A DNA stretch of 64,000 bases from Patescibacteria group bacterium (GCA_041645555.1 JBAZPX010000001.1:204731-268730), one strand, 5' to 3'; positions 14,595 to 51,450 are shown, numbered from the stretch's first letter. The notes: generated by a model from the sequence alone, not told the origin. Made by a program: numbers and translations.

Positions 14595-14664
14595 GGGATT
14601 CTTGAGACTCTTAGGATTATTAGGATAGTGTTATTTTCAAAATCCTAATCCCGAGTACTCGGGA
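14595..14664. repeat. Intergenic word array plus 16-nt perfect palindrome tcccgagtactcggga
   Basis: gggattcttgagactcttaggattattaggat faces aaaatcctaatcc. The palindrome with its flank (tcccgagtactcgggactaa) is repeated at 23132-23151. Confidence 0.8.
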
Positions 14665-14688: not shown

Positions 14689-15459
14689 ATGGATGTAATC
14701 CAAAGCATAATTTTAGGAATAGTTGAAGGCTTAACCGAGTTCTTGCCCATTTCTTCAACGGCCCATTTAATAATTACGGCCAAGCTTTTGGCTATCGGCC
14801 AAACCGAGTTCGCCAAGAATTTTGAGATCACCATCCAGCTGGGCGCGATTTTAGCTGTGGTATTTTTATACTGGCAGAGGTTCTTCAAAGATCTGGATTA
14901 TCTAAAAAAAATAATTATGGCTTTTCTGCCGACGGCCGTAGTCGGTTTTATCTTTTATCAAATTATAAAGAATTTTTTAATGGAAAGTCTTTCGGTTATT
15001 GCTTTGGCTCTGCTAATCGGAGGTATAATTATTATTGTTTTTGAAGCTGGCAAAGGCAAAAGAACGGCGGATAATGGCAGCGATGCAATTACTTACAAGC
15101 AAGCTTTTTTAATAGGACTGTGCCAGTCAGTGGCAGTAATCCCTGGAGTTTCCCGGGCCGCGGCTACGATTATCGGTGGCTTATCGTTAAAACTTTCCCG
15201 CCGGGCAATCGTGGAGTTTTCTTTTCTCTTGGCGGTGCCAACGATGATAGCGGCGACTGGTTACGACTTAATTAAAACCGGGTTTAGCTTTTCCGGCCAG
15301 GAATTAGGAGTTCTTCTGGTCGGTTTTATAATTTCCTTTTTTGCCGCTTTGGCCGGCGTAAAGTTTTTCCTGAAATTTATAACCAAATACAATTTTTTCT
15401 ACTTTGGGGTTTACCGAATAATTTTAGGGCTGGTAATTTTAGCCTGGCTTTGGGTTTAG
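14689..15459 (+). CDS. uppP: Undecaprenyl-diphosphate phosphatase UppP/BacA
   Basis: GLTEFLPISSTAHL motif and PGVSRAAATI motif in a polytopic membrane protein. Confidence 0.9.
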   Translation: MDVIQSIILGIVEGLTEFLPISSTAHLIITAKLLAIGQTEFAKNFEITIQLGAILAVVFLYWQRFFKDLDYLKKIIMAFLPTAVVGFIFYQIIKNFLMESLSVIALALLIGGIIIIVFEAGKGKRTADNGSDAITYKQAFLIGLCQSVAVIPGVSRAAATIIGGLSLKLSRRAIVEFSFLLAVPTMIAATGYDLIKTGFSFSGQELGVLLVGFIISFFAALAGVKFFLKFITKYNFFYFGVYRIILGLVILAWLWV

Positions 15460-22703: not shown

Positions 22704-23057
22704 ATGCTGAGAGAAAAAGGGCCGGATATGCCTTCCGGCAAAGAAGAATGGAGGAGAGAGTTAGAATTAAGACGCCAAGGTTTAGATCAAGCAGATCAGG
22801 AGTTATTAAAGAATAGCAGTCCGGCCAATTCAGAAGTTCATAATAAACATTGGAAGACGTTTAACAGGGTAATAACTATTGATACTTTTTTGGAGCCGGG
22901 CAATAGTGGGTTAAGCCGGGACGAACTAATGGAAAAAGTTCATAGTAATATGGGCACCGCGTTTATTAAAAGTGTGTTTGAAGAAGAGATGGATGAAATA
23001 GAGAAAGTGTCAGGGATGGAGAAGGATGAAATAGAGAAAATAAGAGACGTCGCTTAA
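22704..23057 (+). CDS. Hypothetical acidic protein (117 aa)
   Basis: ORF only; no motif recognised. Confidence 0.45.
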   Translation: MLREKGPDMPSGKEEWRRELELRRQGLDQADQELLKNSSPANSEVHNKHWKTFNRVITIDTFLEPGNSGLSRDELMEKVHSNMGTAFIKSVFEEEMDEIEKVSGMEKDEIEKIRDVA

Positions 23058-23079
23058 TAAAATTTATTATAATTTATCC

Positions 23080-23270
23080 AAGAGGCGATTGCCGTGGTTA
23101 CCAGCCATGGTGTTACGTAAGCTACGTAATATCCCGAGTACTCGGGACTAAGCCAAGAGGGTAAAGAAAGAGTGGTCTTGTTTCTAGCGAGACAATCTGG
23201 GTGGAACCGCGGAATTAAAAACTCCGTCCCGGTGTGTTAAATTATTTTAATACATTGAGGCGGGGTTTTT
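23080..23270 (+). promoter_or_regulatory. T-box riboswitch-like leader (antiterminator/terminator switch) upstream of GNAT-thrS
   Basis: T-box core GGGTGGAACCGCGG at 23199-23212. Canonical antiterminator: helix A1 cuggg/cccgg, 7-nt bulge UGGAACC, helix A2 gcgg/ccgu. Competing terminator cuccguccc (23222-23230) with gaggcgggg (23257-23265) plus U5. Stem-III-like hairpin gtcttg/cgagac just 5' of the core. TATAAT at 23068-23073. The Stem I region is atypical. Confidence 0.7.
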
Positions 23271-23306
23271 AAAATGAATAATTAATAATGAAAAATAAAT
23301 AATTAT

Positions 23307-23846
23307 ATGATCGGGTCGATTTTAAAAGGTGAAAAAGTGATATTGAGGCCGATAAAAGTCAGTGAAGCTGAGAATTTTTTGCGTTGGTTTAAAGATTCTA
23401 AAGTTACTAGGTTCCTTAGGATAGAAGGAGGGGATTTAAATTTAAAAAAGGAAAGGGATATTATCAAAAATATTAGAAAAAATAAAAATAAAATGGTGTG
23501 GTCTATTTATACTAAGGAGGGTAAACATATTGGCGACTCGGGGCTGCATGAGTTAGATTTAAAAAGAAATAAAAAAGCTACGTGGGGAATTGTAATCGGC
23601 GAAAAAAATTATTGGGGCCAAGGATATGGCACCGATACTTTGAGGACCATTTTGAAATTTTGTTTTACTAAATTAAAACTAAACAGGGTAGAATTGTCTG
23701 TTTATCCTCCGAATATAGCCGGTTTTAAATTATATACTAAATGCGGTTTTAAAAAGGAAGGGATAAAAAGAAGATCTATTATGAAGAGGGGAAAATATTT
23801 AGATGAGATAATTATGGGGATATTAAAAAAAGAATTTAAAAATTAA
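23307..23846 (+). CDS. GNAT N-acetyltransferase (RimJ/RimL-like)
   Basis: Acetyl-CoA-binding motif region WGQGYGTDTLRTILKFCF. Typical length and LRPI..SEAENF N-terminus. Confidence 0.8.
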   Translation: MIGSILKGEKVILRPIKVSEAENFLRWFKDSKVTRFLRIEGGDLNLKKERDIIKNIRKNKNKMVWSIYTKEGKHIGDSGLHELDLKRNKKATWGIVIGEKNYWGQGYGTDTLRTILKFCFTKLKLNRVELSVYPPNIAGFKLYTKCGFKKEGIKRRSIMKRGKYLDEIIMGILKKEFKN

Positions 23847-23856
23847 CTATAAAAAT

Positions 23857-25641
23857 ATGGATAAAGAAAAAAATTTAGAGATTATTCGGCATAGCTTAAG
23901 CCATGTTATGGCCGCGGCGGTTAAGGAGTTTTGGCCAAATGTGAAGTTCGCTATCGGGCCGGCGTTAGAAAACGGCTTTTATTATGATTTTGATTTTGGC
24001 AAAGAAAAAGTAAGCGAGGAAGATTTAGCCAAGATTGAGAAAAAAATGGAGGAGATTATAAAAAAAGACCTGAAATTTGAAAGGTCAGAAGTAAAAATTA
24101 ATGAAGCGATTGCCAGAGAAAAAAAATCCGAGCAGATTTATAAGGGAGAACTGATAAAAGATTTAAAAAAAGACCCAGCCTTCGCTAAAGCCTCGGCGGG
24201 CAAGGGGGGGGAAGTTAGTTATTATAAACTTGGCGAATTTGAAGATTTATGCCGCGGACCGCACGTGGCTTCAAGCGGAAAGCTGAATAATGCCGGCTTT
24301 AAACTGACTAAACTGGCCGGAGCCTATTGGCGGGGAGATGAAAAAAACGCTATGCTTACCCGGATTTACGCCGTGGCCTTCGCGAATAAAAAAGAGCTGG
24401 GAGATTATTTAAAGATGATGGAAGAGGCAGAAAAAAGAGACCATCGTAAATTAGGGAAAGAATTGGATTTGTTTGTGTTTTCCGATTTAGTCGGACCAGG
24501 TTTACCGTTATACACTTTTAAAGGCACGATTATTCGCCGTGAAATTATTAATTTTTCTAATGAGCTCCAGCGTGAAATTGGCTACCAGGAAGTGCATACG
24601 CCGAACATGAACAAAGCGGAACTTTTTAAAGTATCAGGCCATTATGATAAATACAAAGAAGATATGTTCCGAGTTGTTTCCAATTATACTGATGAAGAAT
24701 ATTTTCTCAAGCCCATGAATTGCCCGCAACACACGCAGATTTACGCCTCAGAAATGAGAAGCTATCGCGATTTGCCTATTAGGATAGCGGATTTTGCGAA
24801 TCTTTATCGTGACGAAAAGCCCGGCGAGCTTTCCGGCTTGATTCGCCTGCGCTCATTCTGCCAGGACGATGGCCATTGTTTTTGCCGGCCGGATCAGATT
24901 AAAAAAGAATTTCAATCTGTCCTTGGCGCCATTAAAAAAGCCTTGGCTGTTTACAAAATGGATTATCATATTCGTCTATCCCTCTGGGACCCAAGCCAAC
25001 CGGATAAATATTTAGGCGAACCGGCAGTGTGGGAAAAATCTCAAGCGATATTAAAAGATATTTTGGAAGAAAATAAATTAACTTATATCACCAGTATCGG
25101 CGAGGCGGCCATTTATGGCCCAAAAATGGACATTCTAACCAAGGATTCGCTCGGTCGTGAATGGCAAATATCCACTATTCAGCTTGATTTCATTATGCCG
25201 CAAAGATTCGGCTTGTCTTATATTGACGAGAATGGCAAGCAAAAGACGCCGGTTATGATCCATCGGGCGATTGTGGGCTCGCCAGAAAGATTTTTAGGCA
25301 TTTTAATCGAGCACTATGCCGGCGCGTTTCCGGTCTGGCTTTCGCCCGTTCAGGTAAAGATTATTTCTGTCGGAGAAGGCCATATTGAATTTTGCCAAAA
25401 GTTGGCCGGGGATTTTAGAGAAGAAAAAATAAGGGTAGAAGTGGATGGAGACAATGAAACCGTCGGCAATAAAATCAGGAAAGCGGTTGGCGAAAAAACA
25501 CCTTATGTTTTAGTAGTCGGGGACAAAGAAATGGAGTCTAAAAAATTAGCGGTGCGCGACCGGGGGTCTAGAGAAACCAGAGAAATAGAGAAAGATAAAT
25601 TTATTGCTGAAGTGAAAGAAAAGATTAAAAACAGGAAATAA
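23857..25641 (+). CDS. thrS: Threonine--tRNA ligase (no N-terminal TGS domain)
   Basis: Editing-domain RHSLSHVMAAAV, class II core motifs (DHRKLGKELDLF, FRDEKPGELSGLIRLRSF, HRAIVGSPERF) and the anticodon-binding domain. Confidence 0.95.
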   Translation: MDKEKNLEIIRHSLSHVMAAAVKEFWPNVKFAIGPALENGFYYDFDFGKEKVSEEDLAKIEKKMEEIIKKDLKFERSEVKINEAIAREKKSEQIYKGELIKDLKKDPAFAKASAGKGGEVSYYKLGEFEDLCRGPHVASSGKLNNAGFKLTKLAGAYWRGDEKNAMLTRIYAVAFANKKELGDYLKMMEEAEKRDHRKLGKELDLFVFSDLVGPGLPLYTFKGTIIRREIINFSNELQREIGYQEVHTPNMNKAELFKVSGHYDKYKEDMFRVVSNYTDEEYFLKPMNCPQHTQIYASEMRSYRDLPIRIADFANLYRDEKPGELSGLIRLRSFCQDDGHCFCRPDQIKKEFQSVLGAIKKALAVYKMDYHIRLSLWDPSQPDKYLGEPAVWEKSQAILKDILEENKLTYITSIGEAAIYGPKMDILTKDSLGREWQISTIQLDFIMPQRFGLSYIDENGKQKTPVMIHRAIVGSPERFLGILIEHYAGAFPVWLSPVQVKIISVGEGHIEFCQKLAGDFREEKIRVEVDGDNETVGNKIRKAVGEKTPYVLVVGDKEMESKKLAVRDRGSRETREIEKDKFIAEVKEKIKNRK

Positions 25642-25704: not shown

Positions 25705-26937
25705 TCAAGATGACAAAAGGTCAAACTCTTCCGCCAAAACCGAAGCGGCTTTGCCCAGGTTTTGGGCAGAAATCGCCACGGTGATACTGATCTGGCTGGT
25801 GGAGATAAATTCAATGTTTATGCCATTTTCCCCCAGGACCCTGAATAGGCGATAGGCGAAACCTGATGTTTCTTTCATATCCATATCAATAAGAGAAATG
25901 GCGACGAGCCCTTGGCGTAAAACAGTTTCCGTCCCTCCGGTTTTTTCCATGGTCGGGGCAACTCTTTCCGCCGCCGTTGTTTCCAGAAGAATGGAAATTT
26001 GGGTAGTTTCGCCCCCCTGGCCTTGAGCGATGTCAATTACGTTTATTTCTCCAAAAACGGAGAAGACTTCCGCGGCCTTCCCCGGCTCATTGGGAATGCC
26101 AGAAATAAGGAAGCAGCTGATCTCCTTTTTTATAGCTATTCCGCTTTGGCTGGCGGTTTTTTCCAGATCGGCGATATCACCGCTGGTAGCGGTGACCAAA
26201 GTTCCGCCAGTGCTTTCCCCGATACTAGGAGAAAGTAGAACTCTGATATTCACGCCATACATCTTGGCCAACATAACAGACCTGTCCCTTAGCACTCCGG
26301 CTCCGGCCACAGACATAGCGATCATCTGCTCATAGCTTATGGTATAAAAACGGCGGGCGTTAGGGACTAGACGCGGGTCAATGGTATAAACGCCATCAAC
26401 GTCTGTGTAGATTTCACAGACGTCAGCCTTTAAGACAGCGGCCAAAGCCACGGCCGTAGTATCAGACCCGCCCCGGCCTAAAGTAATTATATCCAGGCCG
26501 TTTTCGAAGATGCCCTGAAAGCCGGTGACAACAACTACTTTTCCTTCTTTCAGCAGTTTTTTTATGGGAGACCCTTTTTTTAAGGCCTTTATCCTTCCTT
26601 CTCCGAATTCGCCAGTAGCCACAAGACCGACTTGGCCTGCCGTCAGGCTTTCTGCCGGCACGCCAATATCTTCCAGGGCGATGGCGAGCAAAGACGCGGA
26701 TTGCACTTCCCCGGTCTGAACAAATTGATCTGTTTCTCGCTTTTTAGGATCACGACTTATTTCTTTGACTAAAGCGAGAAGCCTGTCGGTTTCATCTCCC
26801 ATAGCAGAGACGACGACAACAATACCGCATCCATCTTTTCGGCAGCGTTTTATATGGGCTGCCACCTTTTTGATTTTCCCCGCGTCGGCCAGCGAGCTGC
26901 CGCCGAATTTCATTACTGTAATCGGCATACGAGGCAT
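25705..26937 (-). CDS. lysC: Aspartate kinase with C-terminal ACT domains
   Basis: VMKFGGSSLADAGKIKKVA, VVVVSAMGDETDRLL and GRGGSDTTAVALAA motifs. Confidence 0.9.
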   Translation of the reverse strand: MPRMPITVMKFGGSSLADAGKIKKVAAHIKRCRKDGCGIVVVVSAMGDETDRLLALVKEISRDPKKRETDQFVQTGEVQSASLLAIALEDIGVPAESLTAGQVGLVATGEFGEGRIKALKKGSPIKKLLKEGKVVVVTGFQGIFENGLDIITLGRGGSDTTAVALAAVLKADVCEIYTDVDGVYTIDPRLVPNARRFYTISYEQMIAMSVAGAGVLRDRSVMLAKMYGVNIRVLLSPSIGESTGGTLVTATSGDIADLEKTASQSGIAIKKEISCFLISGIPNEPGKAAEVFSVFGEINVIDIAQGQGGETTQISILLETTAAERVAPTMEKTGGTETVLRQGLVAISLIDMDMKETSGFAYRLFRVLGENGINIEFISTSQISITVAISAQNLGKAASVLAEEFDLLSS

Positions 26938-34625: not shown

Positions 34626-34757
34626 ATTAATCTCGCTTTCAAATAGAGTGAATGTGAATGTACAAAAAAGCCAAAATCCCTCTTTAGTTTGGCTTTGTTA
34701 GATTTTTAACTTTATTCTGAATTCTGCATTCTTAAATCTGAATTCTGCATTCCGATG

Positions 34758-34841
34758 TGCCCAGGGAGAGAATCGAACTCTCATGGACTTGCGTCCACAC
34801 GATTTTGAGTCGTGCGCGTCTACCAGTTCCGCCACCAGGGC
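34758..34841 (-). tRNA. tRNA-Leu (anticodon CAA), class II with long variable arm; CCA not encoded
   Basis: Minus strand reads GCCCTGGTGGCGGAACTGGTAGACGCGCACGACTCAAAATCGTGTGGACGCAAGTCCATGAGAGTTCGATTCTCTCCCTGGGCA. T-arm GAGAG-TTCGATT-CTCTC, anticodon loop CTCAAAA, one U-U mismatch in the acceptor stem. Confidence 0.85.
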
Positions 34842-50980: not shown

Positions 50981-51450
50981 ATAATATCAGGGTAAGCGAA
51001 TAGTCGATCGCTTGAGAAAACTTGAGCGGTAGGAAAGTCCGGACTCCCGCCTACGCTAAAGCTTCGGCGGGCAAGTCGTAAAGATTTTGCCTGCTAAGTG
51101 ATTTAGTTAGGTGCCATGGCAGCGGGTAACGCCCGCCAGAAGTAATTCTAGGGAAAGTGCCACAGAGACTATACTAATCAATGCGAAGCATTGGTCAAAC
51201 GTGAAAAGTTCTAGGGTGTGTAAATTGATCTCGGATATCCGTTTAATTTACGCTACTTGGATCGTCCTCTGGCAACAGAGTGACGTGGTAAACCCTGCCT
51301 GAAGCAAGAGCAAACCCCGCTCAGAATGTTAAAGCATTTGAGCGGGATGAAAAGTGGCTCGCTTGATCCCGAGAGCGATTTCGGGACTAGATAGATGACT
51401 ATTTAAAACAAAATCCGGCTTACAGCTTGCCCTGATATTAGTGGAATTTA
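50981..51450 (+). ncRNA. rnpB: RNase P RNA (bacterial type A-like), enlarged
   Basis: GGAAAGTCCGGAC (P4 5' strand), GGTGCC...GGGTAACGCCC, AGTGCCACAGAGAC, and AGATAGATGACTAT...ACAAAATCCGGCTTAC (P4 3' strand). P1 pairs aaattccaataatatcagggtaagc with gcttgccctgatattagtggaattt. P2 pairs aatagtc with gactatt. The ends are approximate. Confidence 0.85.

Follow-up and report, generated by a model that had tools for sequence, protein, structure and literature searches.

A putative transcription-attenuating T-box riboswitch with a minimal specifier hairpin upstream of thrS in Patescibacteria

The DNA considered here is a 64,000-nucleotide (nt) stretch of a Patescibacteria group bacterium genome (GCA_041645555.1 JBAZPX010000001.1:204731-268730), referred to as the window, with positions counted from its first letter. 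The leader at 23080-23270 lies on the plus strand upstream of a GNAT acetyltransferase gene and of thrS, the gene for threonyl-tRNA synthetase (ThrRS). It is very probably a transcription-attenuating T-box riboswitch specific for tRNA-Thr, in which a canonical 3' sensing half is joined to a non-canonical, minimal 5' decoding half. Judged from its predicted structure, the element would be a variant of the T-box that is of the terminator type and has no elbow-binding platform, K-turn or Stem II.

The 3' half (23170-23270) is a canonical T-box discriminator, consisting of the purine string GAGUG, Stem III, AA, helix A1, the UGGAACC bulge and helix A2 with its G·U pair. The T-box core GGGUGGAACCGCGG was located at 23199-23212, and 13 of the 14 positions of the T-box sequence AGGGUGGNACCGCG agree with the window, which has UGGGUGGAACCGCG at 23198-23211. 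The A-rich linker (23155-23174) ends in GAGUG (23170-23174), an instance of the RRRxG motif, and is followed by Stem III (23175-23193; 6 bp, loop UUUCUAG) and by AA at 23194-23195. In the antiterminator (23197-23232), helix A1 pairs CUGGG (23197-23201) with CCCGG (23228-23232), the 7-nt bulge UGGAACC occupies 23202-23208, and helix A2 pairs GCGGA (23209-23213) with UCCGU (23223-23227), its basal pair being G23209·U23227. All pairs of the antiterminator are standard and its predicted energy is -10.4 kcal/mol. The intrinsic terminator (23215-23270) consists of a G+C-rich core stem at 23222-23265 and a U5 run at 23266-23270 that ends 36 nt upstream of the GNAT start codon; in the minimum free energy (MFE) fold its hairpin spans 23215-23272 at -30.4 kcal/mol. 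Terminator and antiterminator both use 23223-23232 and are thus mutually exclusive. Folding of the leader region was much stronger than that of shuffled sequences (z = -7.7). A textbook T-box 3' half, with core, A1, bulge, A2, an exclusive terminator and a U-run, had been described in the initial annotation of this DNA, and every one of these parts was recovered at the same positions.

The 5' half is not a Stem I. In the segment 23084-23154, helix P1 (GGC at 23084-23086 with GCC at 23152-23154, a pairing that covaries in the family described below) closes a four-way junction that holds a hairpin with the triplet ACC and two more hairpins. The first P1 strand is followed by the junction strand GAUUG (23087-23091) and the second is preceded by the junction strand CUAA (23148-23151), and both strings are conserved in relatives. 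The specifier hairpin P2 (23092-23110) is an uninterrupted 6-bp stem (CCGUGG/CCAUGG) with the 7-nt loop UUACCAG, inside which the specifier ACC (23100-23102) is followed by A (23103). P3 (23113-23129) has 7 bp and the loop AGC, and its sequence is not conserved in relatives; P4 (23132-23147) is the 16-nt palindrome UCCCGAGUACUCGGGA, which forms 6 bp with the loop GUAC and abuts CUAA. Both are perfect hairpins without internal loops and therefore offer no place for an S-turn. A -10-like promoter box, TATAAT, was read at 23068-23073 and would place the transcript start at about 23080-23083. Since this promoter is only about 10 nt upstream of P1, there is no room for a canonical long Stem I. The absence of an obvious long Stem I and the presence of three short hairpins instead (23092-23110, 23113-23129 and 23132-23147) are as the initial annotation had them.

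Two other structures were considered for this region and rejected. In the MFE fold of the whole leader, the T-box sequence is paired to P2, namely to its 5' arm and loop (CCGUGGUU.ACC); this fold was set aside in favour of the comparative structure, and the pairing is regarded as specific to the window, since the P2 arm varies freely in relatives whereas the T-box sequence does not. A K-turn at P1/GAUUG/CUAA did not fit by inspection, the consensus (a 3-nt bulge with tandem G·A/A·G pairs) being unfit in either orientation. The strings GAU and UAA might conceivably form a 'UAA/GAN' internal-loop motif.

A scan with the Rfam T-box model RF00230, which has a gathering threshold of 93 bits, had been suggested as a check. 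No T-box was found at Rfam gathering thresholds across the 64-kb window. When the leader region was searched alone, RF00230 aligned to 23004-23234 with 45.8 bits; the expected value was significant (E = 4.8e-9), but the score was well below the threshold. The part from Stem III to the antiterminator was aligned at the highest posterior probability ('*'), and with all hallmarks present the proposal of a T-box-type antiterminator held. Stem I of the model, in contrast, was placed on 23004-23090, which is the 3' end of an open reading frame (ORF, 22704-23057) plus the promoter, at low posterior probability and with several non-pairs. A canonical 3' alignment joined to a forced 5' alignment indicates that the 5' half is outside what the Rfam model describes. 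An ordinary T-box with its long Stem I further upstream, at about 23004-23090 according to the Rfam alignment, is an extremely unlikely reading of the leader. The alignment does extend over this stretch and finds an AGAGA-like string in it, but the specifier that it implies is UUU, which is no Thr codon, and among the relatives the -10 boxes are 7-9 nt before P1 and no conservation was seen upstream of P1. RF00230 gave only 29-53 bits on 12 relatives and reached its gathering score on none of 20 family loci. The full-length Rfam alignment was therefore rejected, as Stem I would fall inside the upstream ORF and promoter. Rfam also aligned P3 as a Stem IIA 'F-box' (ACGUAAGCUACGUAA) with high posterior probability; this was judged a coincidence, P3 sequences being unrelated in relatives.

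Relatives of the leader were collected by two routes. A ThrRS homology search yielded the 80 closest thrS loci, species-representative and all from metagenome-assembled genomes (MAGs) of Patescibacteria, or candidate phyla radiation (CPR). On this sequence evidence the host belongs to the CPR/Patescibacteria, as the initial annotation had supposed in calling the genome CPR-like. A T-box core was found upstream of thrS on the coding strand in 21 of the 80 loci, and these 21, placed in register, share the 5' layout NNN-GAUUG-[6-bp stem, 7-nt loop YYACCAR]-[one or two hairpins]-CUAA-N'N'N'. The string GAUUG was present in 18 of the 21, which had been found via ThrRS homology alone and without use of the string; 17 of these 18 have CUAA and one has CCAA. 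The three to five bases before GAUUG pair with those after CUAA to form P1, in sequences as different as GGC/GCC, AGA/UCU, CGGA/UCCG, UUGA/UCAA and AGCU/AGCU. This route contributed 17 family relatives.

The second route was a pattern scan of metagenomes in which GAUUG, one A, CUAA and the T-box core were fixed while the loop triplet and the bulge base were left free. It returned at least 120 loci, and among the matches listed 96 of 120 form the specifier hairpin. All 96 have an NNACCAN loop and a complementary P1, and ThrRS follows wherever there is enough downstream sequence. The remaining loci among the matches listed, about 24, lack both the hairpin and ThrRS and carry different bases in the bulge; they appear to be other T-boxes that fit the pattern by chance. 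The family thus comprises at least 113 relatives (17 + 96) upstream of thrS in Patescibacteria genomes and metagenomes.

For the analysis of covariation, 110 non-identical leaders, with the window excluded, were aligned with MAFFT without regard to structure, and the alignment was scored against the explicit structure. Paired cells amounted to 92.8%, compared to 69.3% in shuffles, and the covariation score was 0.713, compared to 0.247 in shuffles and 0.05-0.13 when the partners were slid by 1-3 columns; none of 500 shuffles reached the observed values. In P1, whose pairing was never used to select members, all five pairs change on both sides and 88.7% of cells are paired. P2 likewise shows two-sided change in all six of its pairs, a single position having as many as six pair types, and A1 is 97% paired with three of five pairs covarying. 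The loop uuACCAg had been proposed as the specifier of an atypical Stem I, and the result agrees with it, as the stem covaries in the 110 relatives and ACC is invariant even where the triplet was left free.

A covariance model, R1, was built from the same alignment, the window again being left out. On the 64-kb window R1 gave one match only, full-length at 23080-23253, with 90.3 bits and an E of about 1e-17. Scores over the loci were bimodal, family members lying at 70-113 bits and other T-box-like matches at 31-41 bits, and the model picked out 23 of the 80 species-representative thrS loci as carriers of the class. The typical R1 score together with an RF00230 score below gathering indicates that the window element is a typical member of a distinct class unseen by standard annotation. 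Divergent variants without GAUUG were also noted: loci L053, L067, L076 and L031 score 29-36 bits with R1 and carry a short ACC-A hairpin (loops of 7-9 nt) before the T-box core and thrS. Locus L076 has two tandem T-box-like cores.

Features of the class were counted in 109 non-identical members unless stated otherwise. A TAnnnT -10 box is present upstream in 107 of them, with a sharp peak 7-9 nt before P1, which indicates that the RNA begins at P1 and leaves no space for a long Stem I. P2 is followed by two hairpins in 61 members and by one in 47, so that P3 and P4 are variable in number as well as in sequence; a helix ending at most 1 nt from CUAA occurs in 71 of 108 members, compared to 22% of shuffles. 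The loop consensus is C/U-U-A-C-C-A-A, and none of the 113 relatives departs from ACC, which holds also for the 96 of 120 listed scan matches whose triplet was left free. The anticodon loop of tRNA follows the pattern Y32-U33-NNN-R37-A38. The consensus of the P2 loop, on its 6-bp stem, fits this Y-U-NNN-R-A pattern. Conservation of GAUUG and CUAA is not explainable by base pairing within the leader.

On the 3' side, the five nucleotides before Stem III are AAGUG, GAGUG, AAGAG or AAGCG in relatives, which corresponds to the RRRxG purine string as defined in PMC7583486. Stem III itself was recognised in 84 members and is missing from 25, although it has been described as indispensable for binding of the tRNA 3' end in the T-boxes studied (PMC7583486). 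In members without it, for example L020 (2829-2963), L065, L085, L140, L145, L172, L174, L175 and L179, the purine-rich linker runs straight into A1. Among the 110 aligned leaders, 64 have G·U as the basal pair of A2 (alignment columns 203 and 246) and 44 have G-C, whereas the G·U wobble at this place is described as a conserved steric sensor of the aminoacyl group. The bulge reads UGGA in nearly all members and UGGG in two. A run of at least four T follows the core in 108 of the 109 members, indicating that the class acts by transcription termination.

The initial annotation had predicted from the UGGA bulge a tRNA with U73. Three tRNA-Thr genes were found among all 200 loci, in L064 (UGU), L073 (CGU) and L162 (UGU), and all three have U73, as predicted; neighbouring tRNA-Val and tRNA-Leu genes have A73. 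In L162 the tRNA-Thr gene is on the same contig as a family T-box. The two UGGG members are compatible with U73 since G·U pairing is possible. The U73 of these tRNA-Thr genes from other genomes supports the prediction. The only tRNA gene of the window itself is for tRNA-Leu, and no tRNA gene was found in about 20 kb beyond the window ends.

What was observed comprises the anatomy of the leader, covariation in P1, P2 and A1, an ACC that never varies, an association with thrS only, the competition between terminator and antiterminator and the U73 of related tRNA-Thr. We infer that tRNA is bound and expression regulated, how the two loops meet, and what GAUUG/CUAA, P3 and P4 contribute. Transcription would start just past the TATAAT box at 23068-23073, and the first 70 nt would fold into the P1-closed junction, with the 6-bp hairpin showing ACC-A in a 7-nt loop like that of an anticodon arm. 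This loop would pair with the GGU anticodon of tRNA-Thr, and UGGA in the discriminator would pair with the free 3'-UCCA end of uncharged tRNA-Thr (U73). Pairing with the tRNA is predicted to stabilise the weak antiterminator against the much stronger terminator, leading to read-through into the GNAT gene and thrS. Charged Thr-tRNA would not be accommodated, and transcription would then stop at the U-run (23266-23270).

Several points weigh against this interpretation. By the Rfam rule the leader is not an annotated T-box, as its RF00230 score is about half the gathering threshold. The three tRNA-Thr with U73 are UGU and CGU isoacceptors of other genomes and none of them is GGU; no tRNA-Thr(GGU) of this genome was found in the 64-kb window or in about 20 kb of its flanks, nor was a tRNA-Thr found in 60 relatives' loci or a GGU isoacceptor among all 200 loci. 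Part of the invariance of ACC, GAUUG and CUAA is a consequence of how the members were collected. No member with a different specifier or target was found in the triplet-free metagenome scan (among the matches listed) or with R1 over the loci, and thus no case in which codon and gene change together. Finally, short Stem I hairpins alone barely bind tRNA, a truncated Stem I needs the help of Stem II, and transcriptional T-boxes need elbow contact and fast, bivalent binding (PMC7583486); by this standard such a minimal module would seem to fall short in affinity and speed.

A compensating contact would most obviously come from the GAUUG/CUAA strands and the junction that P1 closes. Accordingly, we regard it as quite possible, if somewhat short of probable, that the element is the same T-box but that the ACC loop alone is insufficient, a second contact with the tRNA being made by the GAUUG/CUAA junction or by P3/P4 in place of the Stem I platform or the Stem II S-turn, or a protein helping. 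Such a contact would fit the published behaviour of truncated Stem I and of transcriptional T-boxes, the conservation of GAUUG and CUAA in loci found without those strings, for which pairing in the leader offers no explanation, and the one or two extra hairpins that are always inside P1. Nevertheless, P3 and P4 are conserved neither in sequence nor in number, and no S-turn, K-turn or T-loop consensus fits the junction by inspection.

The translational operator of E. coli thrS is a mimic of the tRNA-Thr anticodon arm that is bound by ThrRS. It concerns the same gene, and its leader hairpin resembles an anticodon stem-loop, as P2 does. With this precedent, the Patescibacteria element might act without tRNA, either as an operator bound by ThrRS through anticodon-arm mimicry or as a relic with constitutive termination or read-through. 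We consider this very unlikely. The P2 loop contains the codon ACC and not the anticodon-like NGU that ThrRS would recognise, so the leader is not an operator of the E. coli type; where the latter mimics the anticodon and binds the synthetase, the present leader shows the complementary codon, coupled to a sensor of the tRNA 3' end and a terminator. A complete discriminator, with a UGGA bulge predicted to match U73, is conserved alongside P2, and a relic would hardly be conserved, with compensatory change, over more than 100 divergent lineages.

The T-box interpretation also allows the leader to be placed among known T-boxes. With class I T-boxes (RF00230; the Bacillus subtilis thrS, tyrS and glyQS leaders) it shares the T-box sequence, the order RRRxG-Stem III-AA, A1, the 7-nt bulge and A2 with its basal G·U, as well as a competing intrinsic terminator, a specifier codon plus purine that matches the regulated aminoacyl-tRNA synthetase, and a UGGN that is predicted to match the discriminator base of the tRNA. 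Unlike class I, it has no long Stem I, K-turn, specifier internal loop with S-turn, AG bulge or distal-loop elbow platform, and no Stem II or IIA/B pseudoknot. A plain 6-bp hairpin instead bears the specifier in its 7-nt apical loop and stands in a three- or four-way junction closed by P1 and flanked by GAUUG and CUAA, and the leader family was found in Patescibacteria, here only on thrS. As in glyQS-type T-boxes without a Stem II domain, a simple linker with neither Stem II nor IIA/B leads from the decoding domain to Stem III and the antiterminator; however, glyQS has a full long Stem I with platform and strong GGC:GCC pairing, whereas here Stem I is reduced to a hairpin.

The closest resemblance in the 5' half is to the Actinobacterial class II translational ileS T-boxes with ultrashort Stem I (M. 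tuberculosis, N. farcinica; structures PDB 6UFG and 6UFM, PMC7583486), which likewise have an apical-loop specifier in a short hairpin, no elbow platform and a canonical discriminator. Class II acts on translation by Shine-Dalgarno sequestration, whereas this leader, as 108 of 109 relatives, has a terminator and U-run. Class II also has a K-turn, a long Stem II with an S-turn purine string and a IIA/B pseudoknot, while P3 and P4 are short, perfect and variable and a K-turn does not fit by inspection, although mimicry at the tertiary level is possible. Moreover, the 5' domain of the present leader is closed by a covarying long-range helix, P1, that has no counterpart in class II. The TBDB class II model was built from Actinobacteria only. 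In a literature search of partial coverage, which leaves an earlier description possible, we found no paper joining the T-box with CPR, Patescibacteria, Saccharibacteria or related names.

Taken with these comparisons, the family probably represents a previously undescribed structural class of T-box, a view that we hold with some reserve. The anticodon would be read by a hairpin like an anticodon stem-loop within a P1-closed junction with conserved GAUUG/CUAA; the class would be widespread in Patescibacteria, where it occurs at about one in four species-representative thrS loci, and would seem to serve thrS in particular, with Dtd or a GNAT enzyme under its control in some lineages. A bare specifier hairpin combined with a terminator in a large conserved family would challenge the rule, given in review, that transcriptional T-boxes have a long Stem I and elbow contact while truncated forms are only translational and have Stem II. 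The module of about 70 nt is perhaps the smallest natural one for decoding tRNA and may be of use in structural work, in kinetics and in engineering. The genomes of Patescibacteria are tiny and their known regulators few, yet many of these bacteria keep this predicted RNA sensor of Thr-tRNA charging. As the Rfam threshold misses the whole family, genome annotation under-reports T-boxes in this radiation.

The window has two copies and no more of the palindrome that forms P4, one at 14649 and one at 23132, where 0.01 copies are expected from shuffles. It had been noted as a repeat; the two copies are indeed there, and the stretch common to both sites is 21 nt, CUAA included. Its description as an inserted palindrome does not hold. 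The position of P4 is kept in relatives with unrelated, compensating sequences, also within the subclade of the window, and abuts CUAA, so from its sequence pattern the palindrome is best regarded as a regular junction helix and not as an addition to the structure. The hairpin (U)CCCGAGUAYUCGGG(A) has only seven distinct sites in the 1.44 Mb of sequence compared: 14649-14664 and 23132-23147 in the window, about 2764 in L014, about 1991 (minus strand) in L106, about 3952 (minus strand) in L118, and about 1777 and 1820 (minus strand) in L178. Six of the seven are in thrS T-box leaders, where the hairpin caps P3, P4 or Stem III or lies about 100 nt past the core. The seventh, at 14649-14664 in the window, is 40 nt upstream of bacA/uppP (14689-15459) and is again followed by CUAA. 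To judge from these sites, the hairpin behaves like a portable module.

Downstream of the leader, the first gene encodes the GNAT acetyltransferase (23307-23846, plus strand; Pfam Acetyltransf_3, 88 bits) and is separated by 10 nt from thrS (23857-25641, plus strand), the conserved target of the leader. A GNAT-thrS operon had been proposed as the regulated unit. Both genes do follow the leader here, but GNAT is no general target, as thrS comes directly after the leader in 94 of 107 members and GNAT stands between them in four only: the window, L013 (87% identity), L072 (76%) and L142 (51%). The same slot is taken elsewhere by a DUF2238 membrane protein (L048), a Ham1-family NTP pyrophosphatase-like protein (L100) and the D-Tyr-tRNA deacylase Dtd (L005 and L008). 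The gap between leader and thrS seems to be a recurrent insertion site, and by gene order GNAT is one of several sporadic, lineage-specific passengers.

The initial annotation had also speculated that this GNAT might act on aminoacyl-tRNA. Its Pfam matches are to generic GNAT families only, no NCBIfam model reached its cut-off (the best was PseH with 59 against 93), and the closest relatives in the PDB are AAC(6') and spermidine acetyltransferases. These Pfam, NCBIfam and PDB comparisons gave no specific evidence for action on aminoacyl-tRNA, and GNAT is predicted to be co-regulated by position. A role as a RimL/MccE-like detoxifier of aminoacyl-tRNA synthetase inhibitors was considered and found no specific support. 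The presence in the same slot of Dtd, a genuine aminoacyl-tRNA enzyme, is suggestive at most. In L005 (leader 1902-2057, ORF from 2068) and L008 (leader 1549-1757, ORF from 1874), Dtd (Pfam, 183-192 bits) is followed by one or more further ORFs and then by thrS, an arrangement that would place a tRNA-proofreading enzyme under control of Thr-tRNA charging by an ACC-specifier leader.

A few neighbouring features were also recorded. An aspartokinase gene (25705-26937, minus strand; AA_kinase and ACT domains) is convergent with thrS and encodes the enzyme at the entry to threonine biosynthesis, which is notable beside thrS in a lineage usually poor in amino-acid biosynthesis. Just outside the window, about 4-8 kb beyond its start, L201 (3041-6750) carries genes for AspRS and for an enzyme of the AsnRS/LysRS type with a 23S_rRNA_IVP-family gene between them; a search with R1 found no T-box-like leader for either synthetase gene. 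The only matches at Rfam gathering level in the window are a tRNA-Leu(CAA) at 34757-34841 (minus strand) and a bacterial class A RNase P RNA at 50988-51438 (plus strand; 174.8 bits), the latter with large insertions relative to the model.

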